Virus genome (UHGV): UHGV-0074437
DNA length: 28,657 nucleotides
Direction: 5' to 3' (one strand)
DNA from: a virus
Positions 2,932-11,781 of this stretch are shown one piece after another. Position 1 is the first letter of the stretch; each line of letters opens with the position of its first letter. A program made the translations under genes and the position numbers. The notes beneath the pieces are model-generated. The model worked only from the letters and a program-made list of their open reading frames with translations. It was not told the DNA's origin and made no database searches.

Positions 2932-3483
2932 ATGAATGATATTTCTATCGAATATCTGAAAGAAGCACTGGAATACACACCAGATTCAGGTGTTATCCGT
3001 TGGAAGCAGCGCCCCAAAAATCATTTTAAGACCGATAATTCTTGGCGGGCGACCAATGCCAATTTTGCCGGAAAGGTGGCAGGCGCACGTGATAATGATG
3101 GATATTTCCGCATCGGAATAGATGGTCGGTTATATAGATCTCATCGTGTCGCCTGGGCGTTACATTATGGCTATTGGCCTGAGAATGAGATTGATCACAT
3201 TTCAGGCGATAGAGGTGATAACCGCATAGACAACCTCCGAACAGTGACTTCGGCAGCCAACAACAAGAATTTGCGCCTTTACTCCACTAATAAAACAGGT
3301 GTCCCTGGCGTAGGTTGGTATAAAGCACGTGGGAAGTGGAGAGCAAAGATAAACGTCTCTGGAAAGGTGAAGCATATTGGTTACTTCGATGATTTCTGTG
3401 AAGCGGTGAAAGCAAGAAAGGCTGCTGAGATGAAATTGCAATATCACGAAAATCACGGAGCCGGCGACAGGCTCACTTTCTAA
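2932..3483 (+). CDS. HNH homing-type endonuclease with a C-terminal AP2-like DNA-binding domain
   Basis: 183-aa ORF; HNH_3-like motif HRVAWALHYGYWPENEIDHISGDRGDNRIDNLR followed by an AP2-like segment GVPGVGWYKARGKWRAKINVSGKVKHIGYFDDFCEAVKARKAAE; RBS-like AAAGG upstream. Confidence 0.75.
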   Translation: MNDISIEYLKEALEYTPDSGVIRWKQRPKNHFKTDNSWRATNANFAGKVAGARDNDGYFRIGIDGRLYRSHRVAWALHYGYWPENEIDHISGDRGDNRIDNLRTVTSAANNKNLRLYSTNKTGVPGVGWYKARGKWRAKINVSGKVKHIGYFDDFCEAVKARKAAEMKLQYHENHGAGDRLTF

Positions 3484-3497
3484 AAGGTAAAGACGCA

Positions 3498-4016
3498 ATG
3501 AATCATCAATTGGCTAATCTCGATTTCCGGGACATGGTGGTTGTTTCTGGTGATCGCGTGATCACAACCTCCCGCAAGGTAGCAGCTTACTTCGACAAGC
3601 AGCATCACCACATCATTCAGAAAATCGAAAAGCTAGACTGTTCGGATGAATTTCTAACCAGCAACTTTTCGCGGGTTACCTATGAACACAAGGGTAATCA
3701 GTATGTTGAATATGAAATTTCCAAAGACGGCGCGATGTACATCATCATGTCGTTTACCGGCAAAAAAGCTGCCGCCATCAAAGAGGCGTTTATCAAAGCA
3801 TTTAATTGGATGCGTGACAGGCTGATGGAGATGGCTCACTCATACCAAAGAGAGCACAACGAGTTAATGCTGGAGTTCATGAAGGAAAAGGATGTTGCCA
3901 GTATGTCAGGACGCTTGCTGAACCGCTGGGGCAGGATCAAAAAACCGCAACTCATAGCAAGAATCGAAAGGCTTGAGCAGCAGGCGCAAATATCGATCCC
4001 CGGACTGCCAAAGTGA
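3498..4016 (+). CDS. Rha-family phage regulatory protein
   Basis: 172-aa ORF; N-terminal region (VVVSGDRVITTSRKVAAYFDKQHHHIIQKIEKL...YEISKDGAMYIIMSFTGKKAAAIKEAFIKAFNWM) fits the Phage_pRha family pattern as recalled; RBS AAAGG 6 nt upstream. Confidence 0.7.
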   Translation: MNHQLANLDFRDMVVVSGDRVITTSRKVAAYFDKQHHHIIQKIEKLDCSDEFLTSNFSRVTYEHKGNQYVEYEISKDGAMYIIMSFTGKKAAAIKEAFIKAFNWMRDRLMEMAHSYQREHNELMLEFMKEKDVASMSGRLLNRWGRIKKPQLIARIERLEQQAQISIPGLPK

Positions 4017-4446: not shown

Positions 4447-4944
4447 ATGGCAAAGCTCACCGACAAACAAGAGCTGTTTGCCCATCCGGATGATGTGTAT
4501 GTCGGAGAGTGTGTGATTTATACCGGCTACATAAATAAGCGAGGGTATGGGCAGAAGCACATTTCACGAAAGCCGCACTACGCACATCGAATCGCATACT
4601 GCGAAGCTAACGGAATTTCGCTAGATAGCATCAAGGACCTGGTTGTTAGGCATAAATGCGATAATCCATCATGCGTGAATCCTGACCATCTGATTATAGG
4701 TACTGTCGCTGACAATAATCGTGACAGGTCAAGGCGAGGCAGAAACTCATACCCTGACCGTTCAGGTGAAAAGAACGGAATGGCGAAATTAAAAGAGTGC
4801 GATGTCATCTGCATTCGACGTGAATATGTCCGCGGGAGCATTGGTAGGGGGCTTAGATCCTTATCAGAGAAATATGGCGTATCGACGACCATGATTGCTG
4901 ACATCGTTAATTATAGAAATTGGAGCAACGTTTCGGGGGTGTGA
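4447..4944 (+). CDS. HNH endonuclease (terminase-associated type)
   Basis: 165-aa ORF; motif HRIAYCEANG...RHKCDNPSCVNPDHLIIGTVADNNRD, typical of zinc-binding HNH endonucleases; located immediately upstream of the terminase small subunit, the usual position for HNH proteins that assist terminase cleavage. Confidence 0.8.
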   Translation: MAKLTDKQELFAHPDDVYVGECVIYTGYINKRGYGQKHISRKPHYAHRIAYCEANGISLDSIKDLVVRHKCDNPSCVNPDHLIIGTVADNNRDRSRRGRNSYPDRSGEKNGMAKLKECDVICIRREYVRGSIGRGLRSLSEKYGVSTTMIADIVNYRNWSNVSGV

Positions 4945-4945
4945 T

Positions 4946-5500
4946 TTGAAACAGCTCACACCTAAGCAGGAACTGTTCTGCCGGGAATATTTAAAAGATT
5001 TAAACGCCACTCAGGCAGCTATCAGGGCGGGTTACAGCGAGAAAACTGCTCGCGCCACTGGTAGCGAGAACCTGTCAAAACCTGACATAGCAGATCGCAT
5101 TGCTGAGCTAAAGGCTGAACGCAATGAAGAGGTAGGTATAGACGCTGCCTATGTATTGCGACGGCTGACTGAAATCGATCAGATGGACGTGCTTGACATT
5201 CTGCTTGCCAATGGCGAACTGAAGCCCATTAAAGACTGGCCTAAGGTATGGCGCACAACGCTATCAGGAATGGATGTCGTCGAGATGGCATCAGCAGATA
5301 GCGCCGCACTTCTGAAGAAAATCAAATGGCCTGACAAGGTTAAAAACCTCGAACTTCTTGGTAAGCATGTTTCTGTTCAGGCGTTTAAAGAGCAAACATC
5401 TACAGAAATAACTGGCGCTGATGGAGGACCAGTCAGAACAGAAATTACCAACTTAACGCCGGAGCAGGCTGCAGAAGCGTATAAAAAAATGATGGGCTAA
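4946..5500 (+). CDS. Terminase small subunit
   Basis: Open frame 4895-5500; likely TTG start at 4946 (GGGGG 7 nt upstream) giving an N-terminus [31 protein letters not shown], typical of the Terminase_2 / P27-family small subunit; directly followed by the large subunit. Start codon is inferred. Confidence 0.75.
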
Positions 5501-5502
5501 GT

Positions 5503-7125
5503 ATGCCGTTACCATTTCCCTTCGATTTTAAACATCCTGATTACCAGATGGTTTTTGAATGGCGGATGGAACGCCTACAGCGCATTCGCCAGAATCCTGA
5601 AATATTGCCTGCACTAAAACAGTTTTACCGAACCAACCCGGCTCAGTTCATCATCGACTGGGGCATGACAACGGACCCGCGTAATATTGATTATGGCCTG
5701 CCGGTGACCATTCCGTTTTTACTCTTCCCTAAGCAGGAGGAGTGGATCCACTGGATTATGGAGCGCTGGGGCAATCGGGAGAATGGTATTACCGAAAAAT
5801 CCCGTGAAATGGGACTCAGTTGGACCGCGATCGGACTGGCCTGCTCGCTTTGTCTCTTCAACAAAGAAATGGTTATCGGTTTCGGCTCCCGTAAAGAGGA
5901 ATACGTCGACAGCACCGGGGACCCGAAAGCATTGTTCTGGAAGGCGCGCAAGTTCGTGGAAACACTACCTGTAGAGTTTCGCGGTTCGTGGAGCGAGAAG
6001 AAGCACGCGCCATATATGCGTGTTGAGTTTCCCGATACTGGTGCCGTTATCAAAGGCGAGGCTGGCGACAATATCGGTCGTGGTGACCGTACCACGCTCT
6101 ACCTGGTGGATGAGGCTGCATTCCTCCAGCGTCCTCTGCTGATTGACGCGGCGCTGTCGCAAACCACCCGCTGCCGTATCGACCTGAGTTCGGTTAACGG
6201 CATGGCGAACCCGTTCGCGCAGAAGCGTCACGGCGGGAAGATACCGGTATTCACATTCCACTGGCGGGATGATCCTCGCAAGGATGAAGAGTGGTATCGC
6301 AGGGAATGCGAGAAAATCGATAATCCGGTGGTGGTGGCACAGGAACTTGATCTGAACTACAGCGCATCAGCGGAAGGCGTCCTGATTCCATCCGAATGGG
6401 TACAGGCTGCCGTTGATGCGCATATCAAACTTGGTATCCAGCCAACAGGCAAACGACTTGGCGCGATGGATGTCGCTGATGAAGGCAGGGACAAAAATGC
6501 ATTTTCCACCCGTCATGGCTTCCTCCTGGAAAATGTGCGGGAATGGTCCGGTGTGGGCAGCGACATTTATCAGTCCGTCGAGAAGGTCTTCGGTTTTTGC
6601 GAACAGGACAACCTCGAAGAGTTTCGCTTTGACGAGGACGGGCTGGGCGCTGGCGTTCGCGGCGATGCACGCGCTATCAACGAACTGCGTAACGCTGCGC
6701 GCCGACCGTCAATACTCGCCACACCGTTTCGAGGTAGTGGCGCGGTATTTGATCCGGATGATGAAGCTGTTCGCGGGGACAACGGGCAAGCCGCCCGCCT
6801 GAACAAGGACTTCTTCGCTAACGCCAAGGCCCAGAGCTGGTGGCGGTTACGTAAACTTTTTCAGAATACCTGGCGCGCCGTGGTTGAAGGTATGGCTTAC
6901 AACCCGGACGAAATCATCTCAATCAGCAGTGGCATGGCACTCAAAGATAAACTCATCATCGAGCTTTCGCAGCCGACCTATTCCATTAATGGTGTGGGAA
7001 AAATCGTTATTGATAAACAGCCTGACGGCACCAAGTCGCCGAACCTCGCCGACTCGGTGATGATCAGCTACGCGCCAATGAATTCAGCCCTGAACATCTG
7101 GGAGCTGCTAGGGAGACAGGCCTGA
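5503..7125 (+). CDS. Terminase large subunit
   Basis: 540-aa ORF starting 2 nt after the TerS stop; size, position, a candidate ATPase Walker-B-like segment ([11 protein letters not shown]) and C-terminal nuclease-like acidic residues consistent with TerL. Confidence 0.88.
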
Positions 7126-8591
7126 TGGCACGAAACAAGCAAGCCTCTCAGCGAACGGCGCAGGCCACCGCTGATGGCTACGAGAACTTTGTCGCCCGCG
7201 TGGGGATGCAGACGCCTAACCAGCATTCAGCATCGACCTACCGGGCGAACTTCACCAGCCGCAACCGCATGCTGGTGGAATGGTCCTATCGTTCGTCCTG
7301 GATCATCGGCGAAGCGGTCGACGCTATCCCGGATGATATGACCCGCAAAGGCATTCGCATTACTTCGGAAATTGATGCAAAAGATCGCGGCATTCTCGAA
7401 TCACAACTTGATGAGTTGCAGATCTGGGATGCGCTGAACGACGTGCTGAAATGGTCTCGCCTCTACGGCGGCGCGGTCGGCTTCATCATGATCGAGGGGC
7501 AGGCACCAATGACCCCGCTGCGGCTCGAAACCATTGGAGAAGGCAAGTTTAAGGGCATTCTCCCGCTCGACCGCTGGATGATTAACCCGGTGCTGACACG
7601 CCGCATTAAAGAGATGGGGCCGGACCTCGGCAAGCCTGAGTTTTACGACGTGGTGACCACCGCAACGGGCATTCCGGCCTGGCGCATCCATCACAGCCGC
7701 CTGATCCGCTTCGACGGGGTGACGCTGCCATTCCAGCAGAAGATGACCGAAAACGAATGGGGAATGTCGGTTGTAGAGCGAATCTGGGATCGGCTTACTG
7801 CGTTCGACAGCGCCACTGTCGGCGCGGCGCAGCTGGTCTACAAAGCGCATTTGCGTACCTACAGCGTGGAGAAGCTACGCGAGCTTATCGCACTTGGTGG
7901 TCCTGCGTATGAAGCGCTGCTGAAGAACATCGACCTGATCCGCCAGTTCCAGAGCAATGAAGGCATGACGCTCATGGACTCGCGGGATAAGTTCGAAACC
8001 CACCAGTACAGCTTCAGCGGTCTGGATGACATTCTTTCGCAGTTCGCTGAGCAGATCAGCGGTGCCGTTGGTATCCCGCTGGTGCGACTGTTCGGTCAAT
8101 CCCCGAAAGGCTTCTCTACTGGTGACGCAGACCTCGCCAACTATTACGACCGGGTGAGCTCATTGCAGGAACGCCGCTTACGGATGCCGATGCGCCGGAT
8201 ACTGGACATTATGCACCGCTCGGAACTCGGTAAGCCGCTGCCGGACGATTTCACGTTTGAGTTTAACCCGCTCTGGCAAATGTCTGATGTCGATCGCTCA
8301 ACGGTGGCGTTAAACACTACCAACGCAATCAGTACGGCGCTGGGTGATGGTCTGATGACACTGAAAGCCGCTATGACCGATTTGCGCGAAAATTCTGACG
8401 TAACCGGCATCGGGGCGTCCATTACCGACGAGGACATAGAGAATGCCGAAGACGAAGCGCCGCCAGGCATCGGCGAACTTGGCGACAAACCGCCAGAGTC
8501 GCCAGGCGGAGATCCGATATCGAACGAGCCTACGGCAGATAGCGCGGGCGGTCGGGGATATCGTAAATGGTCGCTACGATGGTTCAAATGA
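7125..8591 (+). CDS. Portal protein
   Basis: 488-aa ORF overlapping the TerL stop by 1 nt (TGATG); size and position after TerL; acidic C-terminal tail; sequence resembles the DUF1073-type portal family as recalled. Confidence 0.82.
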   Translation: MARNKQASQRTAQATADGYENFVARVGMQTPNQHSASTYRANFTSRNRMLVEWSYRSSWIIGEAVDAIPDDMTRKGIRITSEIDAKDRGILESQLDELQIWDALNDVLKWSRLYGGAVGFIMIEGQAPMTPLRLETIGEGKFKGILPLDRWMINPVLTRRIKEMGPDLGKPEFYDVVTTATGIPAWRIHHSRLIRFDGVTLPFQQKMTENEWGMSVVERIWDRLTAFDSATVGAAQLVYKAHLRTYSVEKLRELIALGGPAYEALLKNIDLIRQFQSNEGMTLMDSRDKFETHQYSFSGLDDILSQFAEQISGAVGIPLVRLFGQSPKGFSTGDADLANYYDRVSSLQERRLRMPMRRILDIMHRSELGKPLPDDFTFEFNPLWQMSDVDRSTVALNTTNAISTALGDGLMTLKAAMTDLRENSDVTGIGASITDEDIENAEDEAPPGIGELGDKPPESPGGDPISNEPTADSAGGRGYRKWSLRWFK

Positions 8592-9210
8592 CAGTGTCAC
8601 CGAAATAATGGATGCGCTGGAGCGCTACAGCGAAATCATCACCCCCTGGGCGACGAAGGTTGCTGAGAACTTTACCGCCGACATTGCGCGCCAGAATGAA
8701 AAGCAGTGGCGTCAGCACAGCAGGAACATCAGCGCAGAGCTGCGCAACATGGTCGACCGCGCCCCGGTAGGCCAGGTGATGAAATCCATCGTCGCCGAGC
8801 AAATTAAGTACATCAAGTCACTGCCTCTTGAGGCCGCCGATCGGGTGTATGACATTCAGAACAAGGCCATCGAGGCCGTTGTGTCTGGTGGCCGCGCTGA
8901 GCCATTCGCGAAAGAGATAGCTGCGTCCGGTGACGTGTCACGCTCACGAGCGAACCTTATCGCCCGTACCGAGCTTGGACGCGCAACCGGCGCGCTCGAT
9001 CAGGCGCGTGCGCTGTCAATCGGCTCGAATGGTTATATCTGGCGTACAGCCGAAGATGGCGACGTCCGGCATTCTCATCGGGAGATGGAAGGTAAGTTTG
9101 TCGAATGGGGCAAACCTCCAACGCTTGATGGCATGACCGGTCACGCTGGCGAGCTCCCGAACTGCCGCTGTTACAAAGAAATCGTTTTTAATGAAGGTGT
9201 ATTCAAATGA
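8443..9210 (+). CDS. Head morphogenesis protein (Mu F / SPP1 gp7-like)
   Basis: 255-aa ORF; C-terminal region [47 protein letters not shown] fits the Phage_Mu_F family pattern; GAGGA RBS 7 nt before the ATG at 8443. That start implies a 149-nt overlap with the portal gene; an alternative in-frame ATG at 8608 lies just past the portal stop, so the start is uncertain. Confidence 0.7.
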
Positions 9211-11273
9211 TTCGCATCAGGGTTTTTAACGCTGACTCAGACCGCTGGATCACCGTCAGGCCAAACGGGCCATACCATGAGGGACGCCCGGTAAAAATTG
9301 ATGAGAATGGAGAAATCAGGGCTGGCATGGGGGGGAAGTTCAACGGTAAGAAGATTGGGGAGATCGGGAAGGATTTTTCCGGCCCACAAAGTCCACCACA
9401 GCAGGTAATTCAGGAACGACTGAAAGAAAAAACGGTGAGGCAGGATCCTGCTGTTGCTGAAAGGCGAAAAGGTGACGAGGAACGTGCAGCAGCGGAAAAA
9501 AGGCTTCGCACCGCACTAAAAAAAGCCATCGAAGGGCAGCGTGGAAAAGAAGTACAGAATCCGCCGGAAGCACACCAGCGCTCCACGCAGCCTGAGCCCG
9601 GAAAACTTGACAGTAACGCTATGAAATCCTGGGCTTTATTGTGGAAGCGCGGAAATCCGGTGAAAACGAAAAATACTTCACTGAAACGTGCGAATGAAAC
9701 ACTTACTGCCAATGGATTTCATCCTTTACCTGATAATGTCGCCAGAATAGCAACAAACCGAATTGGTCATTCATTTGCCGCAGGCAATGGTATTGGCCTT
9801 AACGAACTGCTGTCCACCAAGGAACGGCTTTATGACATCGGTGGACGAAATTACTTAAGAGGCTTATTCACCGCTAATGAAGTGGAACAATTAACAAACG
9901 CCGGATTACTGACCCCTGTTTCCGGTGGCGGACTGTTTGATCACATCCCGACAGACAAAGGCGTTACTTTCTTTTCGTCAGTCATACATTCTCAACAGGA
10001 ACAAATGTTGAGTACCGCAAAAGGAACCCGCGACGCGGCGTATACAAAAGGCATCAGGTATTTTTTCAATACCCGGCTGGGGGAAACCCGCTATCAGCTG
10101 GCTGACGGCTCGCTGCTGTGCAAAGACGTGCCGATAGGACGAACAGGTAAGCAGCTCTATGGTGCTGATGACCTGCCAAACCTCAAACCCGACAAGCTCG
10201 GTGAGATAGTCGTCACGCGTTCTCCTGAGCAGGTATTCCATCCCGCCACGCTTGCCTCATTCGAAGGAATGAGTATCACGGTGTTGCATCCCGAGGATGA
10301 AAACGGGGATGTGCGGCTGGTGAATCCAGAGAACTGGAAAGAGCTTGCTGTCGGGCATCTTCAGAATGTCCGGCGCGGGACGGGTGTGCAGTCTGATTTG
10401 ATGCTGGCTGACCTTATCGTCAAAGACGAAAGCGCCATTCAGCTTATCGAAGATGGCCTGCGCGAAGTGTCGTGTGGCTATGACGCGGAGTACGAGCAGA
10501 CCGAGCCAGGTAAAGCCGAGCAGGTCGATATTACCGGAAACCATGTGGCTCTTGTCCCTAAAGGCAGAGCCGGAAATCGTTGTGCAATTGGAGACAGAGA
10601 CACAATGGCAAATCAAAAGAAAAGCTGGTGGACCCGCATGCGCACGGCCATCAAAACGGGTGACGCTGACACCATGAACGAACTGCTGGACTCTGCGCCA
10701 GCGGCGGTAACGGGTGATGAAGGGGATCTGCCCAGCGGCGTTAACCTCAACATTAACCTTTCACCGCAGCAACCATTGCCGGACAAAAAGCCGGAAATGG
10801 GCGGAGAGCCAACCGGCGACGGCGAGGACGATATCAAAACCTTGCTTAAAGCCCTGCTGGCTAAGCTGGAAGGAAATGCGACGGGCGATAACGACAATAA
10901 GCCTGACGATAATCCGACCGGTGACGGCGAGGACGATGAAGAGGAAACCACGATTACTGGTGACTCAGCCTGGCGTGCCGAAGTTATCGTTCCGGGTATC
11001 GATCTGAGCCGTAAGATGAAACCGACCGCGTTCAAACGCGAGGTTCTGGCTTCCGCTGACAAAACGCTGGTTCGCCAGATAGTCGGCGATGCGGATATCC
11101 GCAAATTGCCGAAACAATCGGTCAACATGGCGTTTAATGCCGTGTCAGAGATTGCCAAAGGGCGAAACACCCGCAGCACCACGGGCGATGCACAACGTCC
11201 AAATATGGGCATGACCAGCATCGCTTCCCTGAACAAACAAAACGCCGACTTCTGGTCTAACCGCAAAGGATAA
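9207..11273 (+). CDS. Large multi-domain head protein: unassigned N-terminal domain, central prohead-maturation-like domain (DUF2213-like as recalled), acidic Gly/Asp-rich scaffold-like C-terminus
   Basis: 688-aa ORF overlapping the Mu-F-like gene stop (ATGA); occupies the scaffold/protease slot between head morphogenesis and capsid genes; C-terminal repeats TGDGEDD...[10 protein letters not shown] are typical of scaffolding regions; the N-terminal ~270 aa have no motif I recognise. Confidence 0.65.
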
Positions 11274-11277
11274 TCCA

Positions 11278-11781
11278 ATGACTGCATATCTGTACCGGAT
11301 GCCTGTTGGCATTGCCGGGGCTATCTCTCGCCCGCAGGACTTAACCGTCGAACCGGTGGTCCTTAAATCCGATAACGCCTTTGCTGCCTACGGGCTGGCT
11401 GGTAAATACGATGATGACGGTTTTTTCGTGCCGCTGGAGGACGGTGACACCGCCGACAAGGTGAAGGGGATCTACGTTCGTCCGTATCCGACCACATCGC
11501 AGCCAGACATGGTTCGCCAGGTGGGGACGGATAAGAATTTCCCGGGCGACGCCATGAAACGTGGCTACATGACCGTTAACCTTGGATCTGGCTTCGATGC
11601 CAGCACCATCAAAAAAGGTGATCCTGTCTACGTGGTCGTTTCGCTCGATTCAACCATTGACGTGCCGCTGGGCGGCTTCATGTCCACGTCCGTCAGTGGC
11701 AAAAACGTGGCGCTGACCAACGCCGAATTCACAGGGGCCGGTGACGCTAACGGCAATGCAGAAATCTCCTGGAAGATTTAA
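11278..11781 (+). CDS. Putative head structural or decoration protein
   Basis: 167-aa ORF with AAAGGA RBS, located between the scaffold-like gene and the major capsid gene; function assigned from position only. Confidence 0.45.
   Translation: MTAYLYRMPVGIAGAISRPQDLTVEPVVLKSDNAFAAYGLAGKYDDDGFFVPLEDGDTADKVKGIYVRPYPTTSQPDMVRQVGTDKNFPGDAMKRGYMTVNLGSGFDASTIKKGDPVYVVVSLDSTIDVPLGGFMSTSVSGKNVALTNAEFTGAGDANGNAEISWKI

Follow-up and report, generated by a model that had tools for sequence, protein, structure and literature searches.

Protease–scaffold polyproteins with nested or fused products are known from P2 (gpO), Mu (I/Z), lambda (C/Nu3), and the herpesviruses (UL26/UL26.5), and in engineered P22 scaffold–cargo fusions, a cargo placed N-terminal to the coat-binding scaffold segment is carried into procapsids. 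Known or proposed routes by which phages smuggle proteins by way of their head proteins include MuF or portal fusions, the internal proteins of T4, and the Dar system of P1. In this study, a 28,657-nucleotide stretch of the virus genome UHGV-0074437 (the window) was analyzed, with the focus on a single open reading frame (ORF) that encodes a 688-residue protein in which a foreign extension of 282 residues precedes a putative scaffold of the DUF2213/Pa193 gp24 family. A segment of what we call the handle family, after its conserved N-terminal domain of about 45 residues, has entered a SEN34-like prophage by recombination at the junction of MuF and scaffold, giving one ORF with its own translation signals in which the scaffold start is destroyed. 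That the product is a natural passenger–scaffold fusion, which places its passenger inside the capsid, is a reading for which we find the case evenly balanced.

The closest described relatives of the C-terminal part are the putative scaffolds of PB1-, E217-, and SEN34-type myophages. In Pa193, residues 286 to 326 of gp24 form a pentameric helix-turn-helix under each five-fold vertex of the capsid, and gp24 was detected by mass spectrometry in mature virions (PMC11456595). The C-terminal 406 residues of the window protein constitute a full-length member of this family, and these phages show the same gene order (portal_3, MuF, DUF2213, cement, DUF2184 major capsid protein). However, ordinary members are about 390 to 480 residues long and start at the core, while the window protein carries 282 additional foreign residues and has lost the ancestral start. 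In another study, Iyer et al. (2017) classed polyvalent proteins, and domains of such types fused to MuF or portal proteins, as predicted packaged and injected effectors (PMC5512222). The window protein is similar in that a head-module protein of a portal–terminase phage is fused to a variable extra module. It differs in that its carrier is a DUF2213 scaffold (a term with 0 occurrences in PMC5512222), in that the passenger lies N-terminal to the carrier, and in that the handle has no Pfam or NCBIfam model and the protein has no recognized effector domain.

For P1, the N-terminal 30 residues of DarB suffice for capsid targeting (PMC9024508). The handle is like the T4 internal proteins and the DarB targeting sequence in position, as it starts large head-module helicases (Mecenats66 ORF61 and PHB04 gp025) and other putative internal proteins, and the context of the PHB04 gene, with a giant methyltransferase and an Ulx-like gene, resembles the P1 Dar system. 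Those targeting sequences are short peptides, whereas the handle folds as a domain of about 45 residues and is also found internally, after portal or MuF domains; its targeting role is putative. When the handle consensus was compared by tblastn with 50,697 phage records, only Aeromonas phage DH1, Vibrio phage 1.112.O, Morganella phage Mecenats66, and Bordetella phage PHB04 were matched, and no P1 or T4 record was.

Compared to the engineered P22 fusions, the window ORF has the same topology, but it is natural, it belongs to an unrelated scaffold family, and its loading into procapsids would be expected rather than observed. The resemblance to protease–scaffold polyproteins lies in the joining of several head-assembly functions in one frame, perhaps in the conserved His/Ser/His residues of the DUF2213 core, and in two other loci described below (L076 and L089), which keep the ancestral methionine in frame and so allow long and short products. 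In the window, by contrast, the nested start is destroyed, and a protease role of DUF2213 is putative.

The 688-codon frame is intact in four assemblies (the window, represented by an IMG/VR contig, and Escherichia coli CUPF09, SCPM-O-B-8794, and PD7), two of which are closed chromosomes. PD7 is 100% identical to the window over the insert, and only eight amino acid positions vary among the four assemblies, three of them in the extension. When codons 58–282 were shuffled, none of 20,000 versions was free of in-frame stops (p<5e-5), and the other five frames hold 7 to 19 stops each. The first-pass annotation of the window, which was made from sequence without database searches, had placed a protein with an N-terminal extension in the scaffold slot and had described a central DUF2213-like domain followed by a C-terminal acidic, scaffold-like repeat region. 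These features were borne out by the single ORF, by a match to PF09979 (DUF2213) at aa 298–463 (143.2 bits against a cutoff of 22), and by two PTGDGEDD copies in a C-terminal region that is 94% identical to SEN34 gp5. PHROG 1961 (417 aa) aligned end to end with aa 284–687, and therefore a complete family member starts at about residue 283 and the first 282 residues are extra. The extension is a basic segment of 31 kDa (isoelectric point, pI, 9.7) and the scaffold part is an acidic one of 44 kDa (pI about 4.9). A profile of 30 diverse DUF2213 cores, including that of the window, matched PDB 9B40_G (the Pa193 gp24 "scaffolding protein," residues 2–179) with E=6e-40; the window sequence alone gave no PDB match.

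The residues His361, Ser422, His446, Glu420, Asn445, Arg338, and Arg454 are conserved in 47 diverse cores of 22–28% identity, with H361/S422/H446 kept in 46 or 47 of them, and several related PHROGs carry the label "head maturation protease." The order and spacing of His-Ser-His recall assemblin or HK97-type proteases. No solved protease was matched by sequence when the family profile was searched against the PDB. The conserved residues are consistent with a core that may be a maturation protease.

Orthologs lacking the extension, which had been suggested for comparison, were found. The 120 best protein relatives, some of which stand for thousands of sequences, are 390–449 aa in length (with two of 576 aa that are fused to cement), and their alignments reach no more than the C-terminal 59% of the query; no alignment of the full extension with ordinary scaffolds was seen. 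The two 576-aa relatives (P0063 and P0073) carry the scaffold and the downstream cement in one product (PF09979 with PF22758/PF23982), for which read-through, frameshift, or sequencing error is possible.

Base-level alignment to SEN34, Citrobacter phage Omnitron, and an E. coli prophage showed that homology to the sisters is lost after "...CYKEIVF" of MuF (9189) and is regained at about 10052. The junction between extension and scaffold lies at 10052/10053, after 282 residues; the boundary first proposed, at about 270 residues (10016), was close but slightly too early. The replaced DNA of about 50 bp comprised the last eight MuF codons, the intergenic Shine–Dalgarno (SD) sequence, and the approach to the scaffold start. 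The MuF 3′ codons at 9190–9207 now come from the insert, where the sister MuF ends in ...EIVFPNPHSYLA and a stop. The insert has a GC content of 49.1% and a third-position value (GC3) of 0.45, compared to 54–57% and 0.58–0.68 in the flanking genes. A megablast search of 8400–11400 against phage genomes found SEN34 (genus Brunovirus), Omnitron, four E. coli phages, and Hafnia phage yong1 at 87–95% identity, with two aligned pieces that together account for just 71% of the query; all these phages are 810 bp shorter. The extension is thus a foreign insertion into a conserved gene.

The head module is present in 339 of 5426 complete E. coli genomes, and the extra segment in two of these 339 (PD7, NZ_CP074047, and CUPF09, NZ_CP182142, both from pigs). 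The insert was also found in one GTDB representative E. coli draft and in one IMG/VR contig, which is identical to the window over the fusion gene. Thus, the fusion is known in at least four assemblies of different sources, two being pig isolates and one of these from Thailand; given these several sources, the phage carrying it is transmissible. Among the copies of the insert, there are four substitutions, three nonsynonymous and one synonymous. Searches for the donor at the DNA level and by tblastn in E. coli genomes, phages, plasmids, GTDB, IMG/VR, and JGI metagenomes returned identical copies only. Comparison of window 10387–11270 with the CUPF09 and SCPM-O-B-8794 copies revealed more than 20 differences, mostly synonymous and clustered in the 3′ half of the scaffold part, next to an almost invariant insert; the pattern suggests that the DNA downstream of an insert acquired recently has recombined with sister prophages.

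The insert brought its own start signals. The duplex energy of its AAGGTG falls among those of genuine gene starts in the window, and the MuF stop and the fusion start overlap as ATGA (9207–9210), a layout shared by many other handle loci. At the ancestral scaffold start, ATG has become ATC in the window and in CUPF09. Because the insert has no stop and this start is gone, handle, coil, the 130-aa orphan block, and scaffold form one polypeptide. A scaffold-only product starting from Met267 is a candidate suggested by the upstream AGGA; its SD energy is –4.3 kcal/mol, a value that 20% of the internal in-frame ATGs equal or surpass. The features are collected in Table 1.

Table 1. Features of the fusion gene and its surroundings, with positions in the window
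Feature	Position	Strand	Basis or remarks
MuF-type minor head protein gene	8443–9210	+	Pfam Phage_Mu_F E=3.5e-18; junction alignment
Foreign inserted segment, about 860 bp in place of about 50 bp in sisters	9190–10051	+	Alignments, GC
SD-like AAGGTG	9194–9199	+	7 nt upstream of fusion start; came with insert; duplex –3.9 kcal/mol
Fusion ORF, 688 aa, 75 kDa	9207–11273	+	Single ORF: basic extension and acidic scaffold part
Handle domain, aa 1–57	9207–9377	+	PHROG 25904 and 62; three-stranded beta-meander (AlphaFold2, AF2)
Charged helical linker, Pro/Gln-flanked, aa 58–135	9378–9611	+	AF2 helices 65–78, 81–113
Orphan block, aa 136–265	9612–10001	+	Weakly predicted helical; no homolog found
Linker, aa 266–282, including Met267			Between orphan block and scaffold part
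Internal in-frame ATG (Met267), candidate start of 422-aa scaffold-only product	10005–10007	+	AGGA 4 nt upstream
ATC (Ile283) at ancestral scaffold ATG position	10053–10055	+	Alignment; no SD upstream, –1.7 kcal/mol
DUF2213 core, aa 283–465	10053–10601	+	Pfam; homologous to Pa193 gp24 residues 2–179
Acidic, repeat-containing, scaffold-like C-terminal region, aa 466–688	10602–11273	+	PHROG 1961; pI 4.8

The extension had been taken for one unassigned domain that matches no family. That view was not upheld, as the extension consists of a conserved handle, a coil, and an orphan block, and the lack of a family held in part. No Pfam, NCBIfam, PADLOC, or PDB-sequence match was found for aa 1–282 or its subsegments, and none of these searches detected an enzymatic, effector, or anti-defense domain there. 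However, aa 9–109 match PHROG 25904 (E=2e-18) and the start (positions 1–95) of PHROG 62, which represents giant "DNA helicases." The handle motif, at residues 9 to about 57 with a conserved core at aa 9–50, reads WITVxPNG...G.PV.I..., or in short form WITVxPNG...GMGGKFNG. Thirteen positions are invariant over 70 distinct sequences, and all of them are kept in the window (W14, T16, V17, P19, N20, G21, G26, G35, G40, G42, G43, F45, and G47). The structure prediction that had been suggested for the extension gave a beta-meander for the handle (with a 47-sequence alignment, a confidence score, pLDDT, of 79 and strands at 13–17, 27–31, and 36–40), for which no structural match was found in the PDB, but no confident fold for the orphan block (pLDDT about 30–40). 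The suggestion that the extension is cargo or an effector has comparative support from the enzyme and helicase modules behind the same handle and from the presence of a DUF2213 homolog, Pa193 gp24, inside mature capsids (PMC11456595), although no such domain was recognized in the window protein itself.

The motif and charged-helix layout of the window protein recurs in P0001, in the Mecenats66 and PHB04 helicases, in DH1, and in Vibrio phage 1.112.O, while the orphan block was found only in E. coli and in one uncultivated virus genome. A word-indexed search of 5.8 billion proteins gave a single match, which covered the handle only, and no homolog of the orphan block; a phmmer search of aa 131–282 against 1.84 billion representative proteins gave only a 99%-identical fragment of 76 aa and a plant TRM5 repeat protein. 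The TRM5-methyltransferase match was rejected, since its score was the sum of three copies of a 60-aa match at 30% identity and no methyltransferase motifs were shared. There were likewise no relatives of the block beyond identical copies in phages, plasmids, GTDB, IMG/VR, or JGI metagenomes, and phmmer found no relative of aa 58–282 among all ORFs of 80 handle-bearing loci. The orphan block may be a new effector or a mere spacer.

These 80 loci come from a census in which a profile search returned 57 short proteins and a scan of IMG/VR returned 138 stretches, of which 80 loci were kept; the kept loci were then surveyed with the window head proteins as probes. The handle occurs in several positions. 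In most of the loci it is the first domain of an ORF directly after MuF, often with an ATGA overlap. It also follows the portal domain (eight loci and DH1) or a long MuF or LPD3 (L022, L025, and L057), in Vibrio phage 1.112.O and several loci it belongs to a protein encoded upstream of the portal, and it lies inside giant proteins of 1700–2260 aa, just after LPD1. In Mecenats66 and PHB04, it makes up residues 1–55 of SNF2 helicases (1371 and 1518 aa), whose genes lie between MuF and the prohead protease; the PHB04 helicase gene adjoins those of a 2097-aa methyltransferase and an "Ulx-like anti-restriction" protein.

In 29 of the 80 loci, handle, variable region, and DUF2213 are joined in one ORF, with extensions of 158–620 aa. 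Several of these loci have no start codon near the boundary, and their working scaffold must therefore be the fused polypeptide. Elsewhere, handle and DUF2213 genes are distinct but abut each other, with a handle protein of 300–630 aa. Two loci, L076 and L089, have the same SEN34-like head module as the window, with a shorter handle–linker–DUF2213 fusion; their N termini ("MVRINF.DEDRWITV") are homologous to that of the window protein, the orphan block is absent, and the ancestral methionine is kept ("...GRHTMKYFF...").

What follows the handle varies extremely in both length and content. Across the 70 distinct handle segments, Pfam recognized DUF5710 in 26, LPD3 in three, and Peptidase_M90 in three, with one case each of InPase (portal–handle–InPase, L093), NUDIX (handle–NUDIX–DUF2213, L065), an ADP-ribosyltransferase (ART) exotoxin (ADPrib_exo_Tox), an ATLF-like peptidase (L077), and DUF1391. 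The neighbors of free-standing handle proteins include ddrB-ParB, DUF3560, a portal–PBECR1 fusion, a DUF2213–MuF_C fusion, LPD3, and PBECR3. The vocabulary of Iyer et al. is thus met near the relatives of the extension (LPD1, LPD3, PBECR1/3, MuF_C, ddrB-ParB, InPase, NUDIX, ART, and MPTase-like domains).

Several other features of the family were noted. DUF5710, by far the most frequent handle partner (L019, L021, L035, L043, L046, L047, L059, and L066), is 44 aa long and has the signature K..GA......K.W. An 87-aa fragment (P0015) on a 1768-bp ENA contig has the handle straight after the end of the DUF2213 core ("...GNHVALVEEGRAG...DRWITVKPNG..."), a third arrangement in which the handle is C-terminal rather than N-terminal to the core. 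In L009 (7001–7246 and 7200–8678), L064, L092, and L094, a long ORF in another frame overlaps, or starts immediately after, very short handle ORFs of 65–146 aa, which suggests that frameshifts, either programmed or due to sequencing errors, split the handle from its passenger. In L025, L046, L053, L057, L071, L082, and L084, MuF is 560–607 aa long, compared to the usual 260 or so, with large added regions beside the handle gene.

The window spans the late genes of a prophage of the temperate myovirus kind, in the order Q antiterminator, HNH, Rha, HNH, TerS, TerL, portal (Phage_portal_3), MuF, fusion ORF, cement, DUF2184 major capsid protein, and neck, sheath, and tail genes. The fusion ORF (9207) stands between MuF (8443) and the cement (11278) and major capsid (11793) genes, with Portal_3 at 7125; it thus sits in the head module of a portal–terminase phage and is joined to a virion-protein family. 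The longest MuF ORF shares 149 nt (8443–8591) with the portal ORF, and its relatives are annotated with later starts (CUPF09 at the equivalent of window 8479; the SEN34 product is 202 aa), so that the true MuF start is probably downstream of 8443. Farther upstream, HNH_3 endonuclease genes (2932–3483 and 4447–4944) flank the Rha/ORF11CD3 regulator (3498–4016), ahead of the small terminase (4895–5500). The 540-aa ORF in the large-terminase slot (5503–7125) has no Pfam match at E<=0.1; its RefSeq homolog is named "TerL protein."

On these grounds, a course of events can be proposed for the passenger–scaffold fusion. The insert derives from a gene of a widespread, unnamed head-interior family that is normally translationally coupled just downstream of MuF, with a layout of N-terminal beta handle, charged helix, and variable C-terminal module. 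The recipient was a SEN34-like (Brunovirus-type) E. coli prophage, with crossovers in the 3′ end of MuF and at the DUF2213 start codon. Each fusion molecule that enters the procapsid should bring its basic 31-kDa extension into the capsid interior, because the C-terminal part belongs over its full length to the Pa193 gp24 family, whose members bind to the inner face of the capsid and occur in mature virions. The DUF2213 core might trim the polypeptide, if it is a maturation protease. By analogy, the extension would stay with the DNA, leave with it at infection, and act as a delivered factor, with the variable block as the payload. Such a role would parallel the one proposed for the modules behind the same handle in other phages (ART, NUDIX, InPase, peptidase, and helicase), where the arrangement probably loads passenger proteins into the capsid. 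A bolder proposal, which we regard as speculative and would not favor at present, is that the handle is a portable, undescribed capsid-loading and ejection tag used by many unrelated tailed phages for passengers such as ART toxins, NUDIX and InPase enzymes, peptidases, and DarB-like SNF2 helicases, and that here a scaffold has been joined to this tag and to an orphan effector specific to the lineage. On that proposal, on the order of a hundred copies of a new anti-host or anti-defense protein would be delivered with each genome.

Other explanations of the 688-residue protein need to be weighed. RefSeq annotation of CUPF09 by the PGAP pipeline shows a separate 406-aa DUF2213 coding sequence starting at ATC and an "empty" gap of 843 bp (L004 3311–4154, equal to window 9210–10053), as would be seen if two genes had been wrongly joined or the contig were chimeric. 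That reading is highly improbable and was rejected, since the frame is kept open from 9207 to 11273 in four independent assemblies, the two closed chromosomes included, and the RefSeq start is a noncanonical ATC with no SD. Because the gene model starts at this ATC, the fusion is invisible in protein databases, and similar N-terminal fusions are probably hidden systematically in public annotation and undercounted. The treatment of the upstream part as noncoding in such gene models would also fit a tolerated scar of a recent illegitimate or homeologous recombination, in which the scaffold is made from Met267 or by trimming and a neutral or mildly deleterious long form will be lost. The rarity and near identity of the copies, the 3:1 ratio of nonsynonymous to synonymous changes, the orphan sequence with its lower GC, and the AGGA ahead of Met267 agree with a scar. 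On the other hand, a frame of 282 codons is unlikely to stay open by chance in the shuffling analysis, the insert has its own SD and an ATG that is coupled to MuF through the conserved ATGA, none of the 13 invariant handle residues has been lost, the fusion is carried in at least four assemblies from different sources, the same architecture has evolved or persists in many other lineages, and 20% of random internal ATGs have an SD at least as good as that of Met267. We therefore consider a scar unlikely.

Slightly less doubtful, but still a minority view in our estimation, is that handle and coil are a structural element of the portal–MuF–scaffold nucleation complex, for example for docking or oligomerization, with the orphan block as a spacer, and that the fusion supplies an N-terminal extension that is standard on many other DUF2213 scaffolds. 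The fused form indeed appears to be the sole scaffold form in many lineages, with no start codon near the boundary; the proteins to which the handle is attached (portal, MuF, and scaffold) are all assembly proteins; most variable regions hold only DUF5710 or no recognized domain; and the orphan block lacks a confident fold. However, SEN34-like phages assemble without the extension (337 of the 339 E. coli prophages, SEN34, Omnitron, and yong1), the handle heads SNF2 helicases of 1371–1518 aa and precedes NUDIX, InPase, ART, and peptidase modules that have no obvious assembly role, and the hypervariable length and content behind it are as expected of payloads. Loading of a passenger by the scaffold, in turn, has to be set against several observations. 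Some of the proteins to which the handle is fused already reside in the head, and thus a targeting or delivery role is not required; if every scaffold copy carries the extension, an extra 31 kDa per copy makes a large procapsid load; and with no effector-type domain, fold, or homolog, aa 136–265 could be filler. Because the fusion is rare and recent (two of 339 E. coli prophages of the SEN34-like type) and the copies differ by few substitutions, three of four in the insert being nonsynonymous, selection for a function of the insert is not demonstrated. A literature search found no proteomic or genetic evidence of handle-bearing proteins in virions or ejected from them, and no paper on DUF2213 fusions, on the function of DUF5710, or on virion proteomics of Mecenats66 or PHB04.

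Compared to the described ways of carrying proteins in phage heads, the window has three unreported features: a scaffold as the carrier, a conserved and unnamed handle domain, and a lineage-specific orphan passenger. The natural use of the DUF2213/Pa193 gp24 scaffold as a carrier, which the window would share with at least 28 further viral contigs, would be the counterpart of engineered scaffold–cargo encapsulation. The handle marks the starts of passengers across many head modules, and searches for effectors delivered by virions could be based on it; for phage engineering it is a candidate loading tag. Since E. coli PD7 and CUPF09 are lysogens, the question of what the orphan block does is directly testable.

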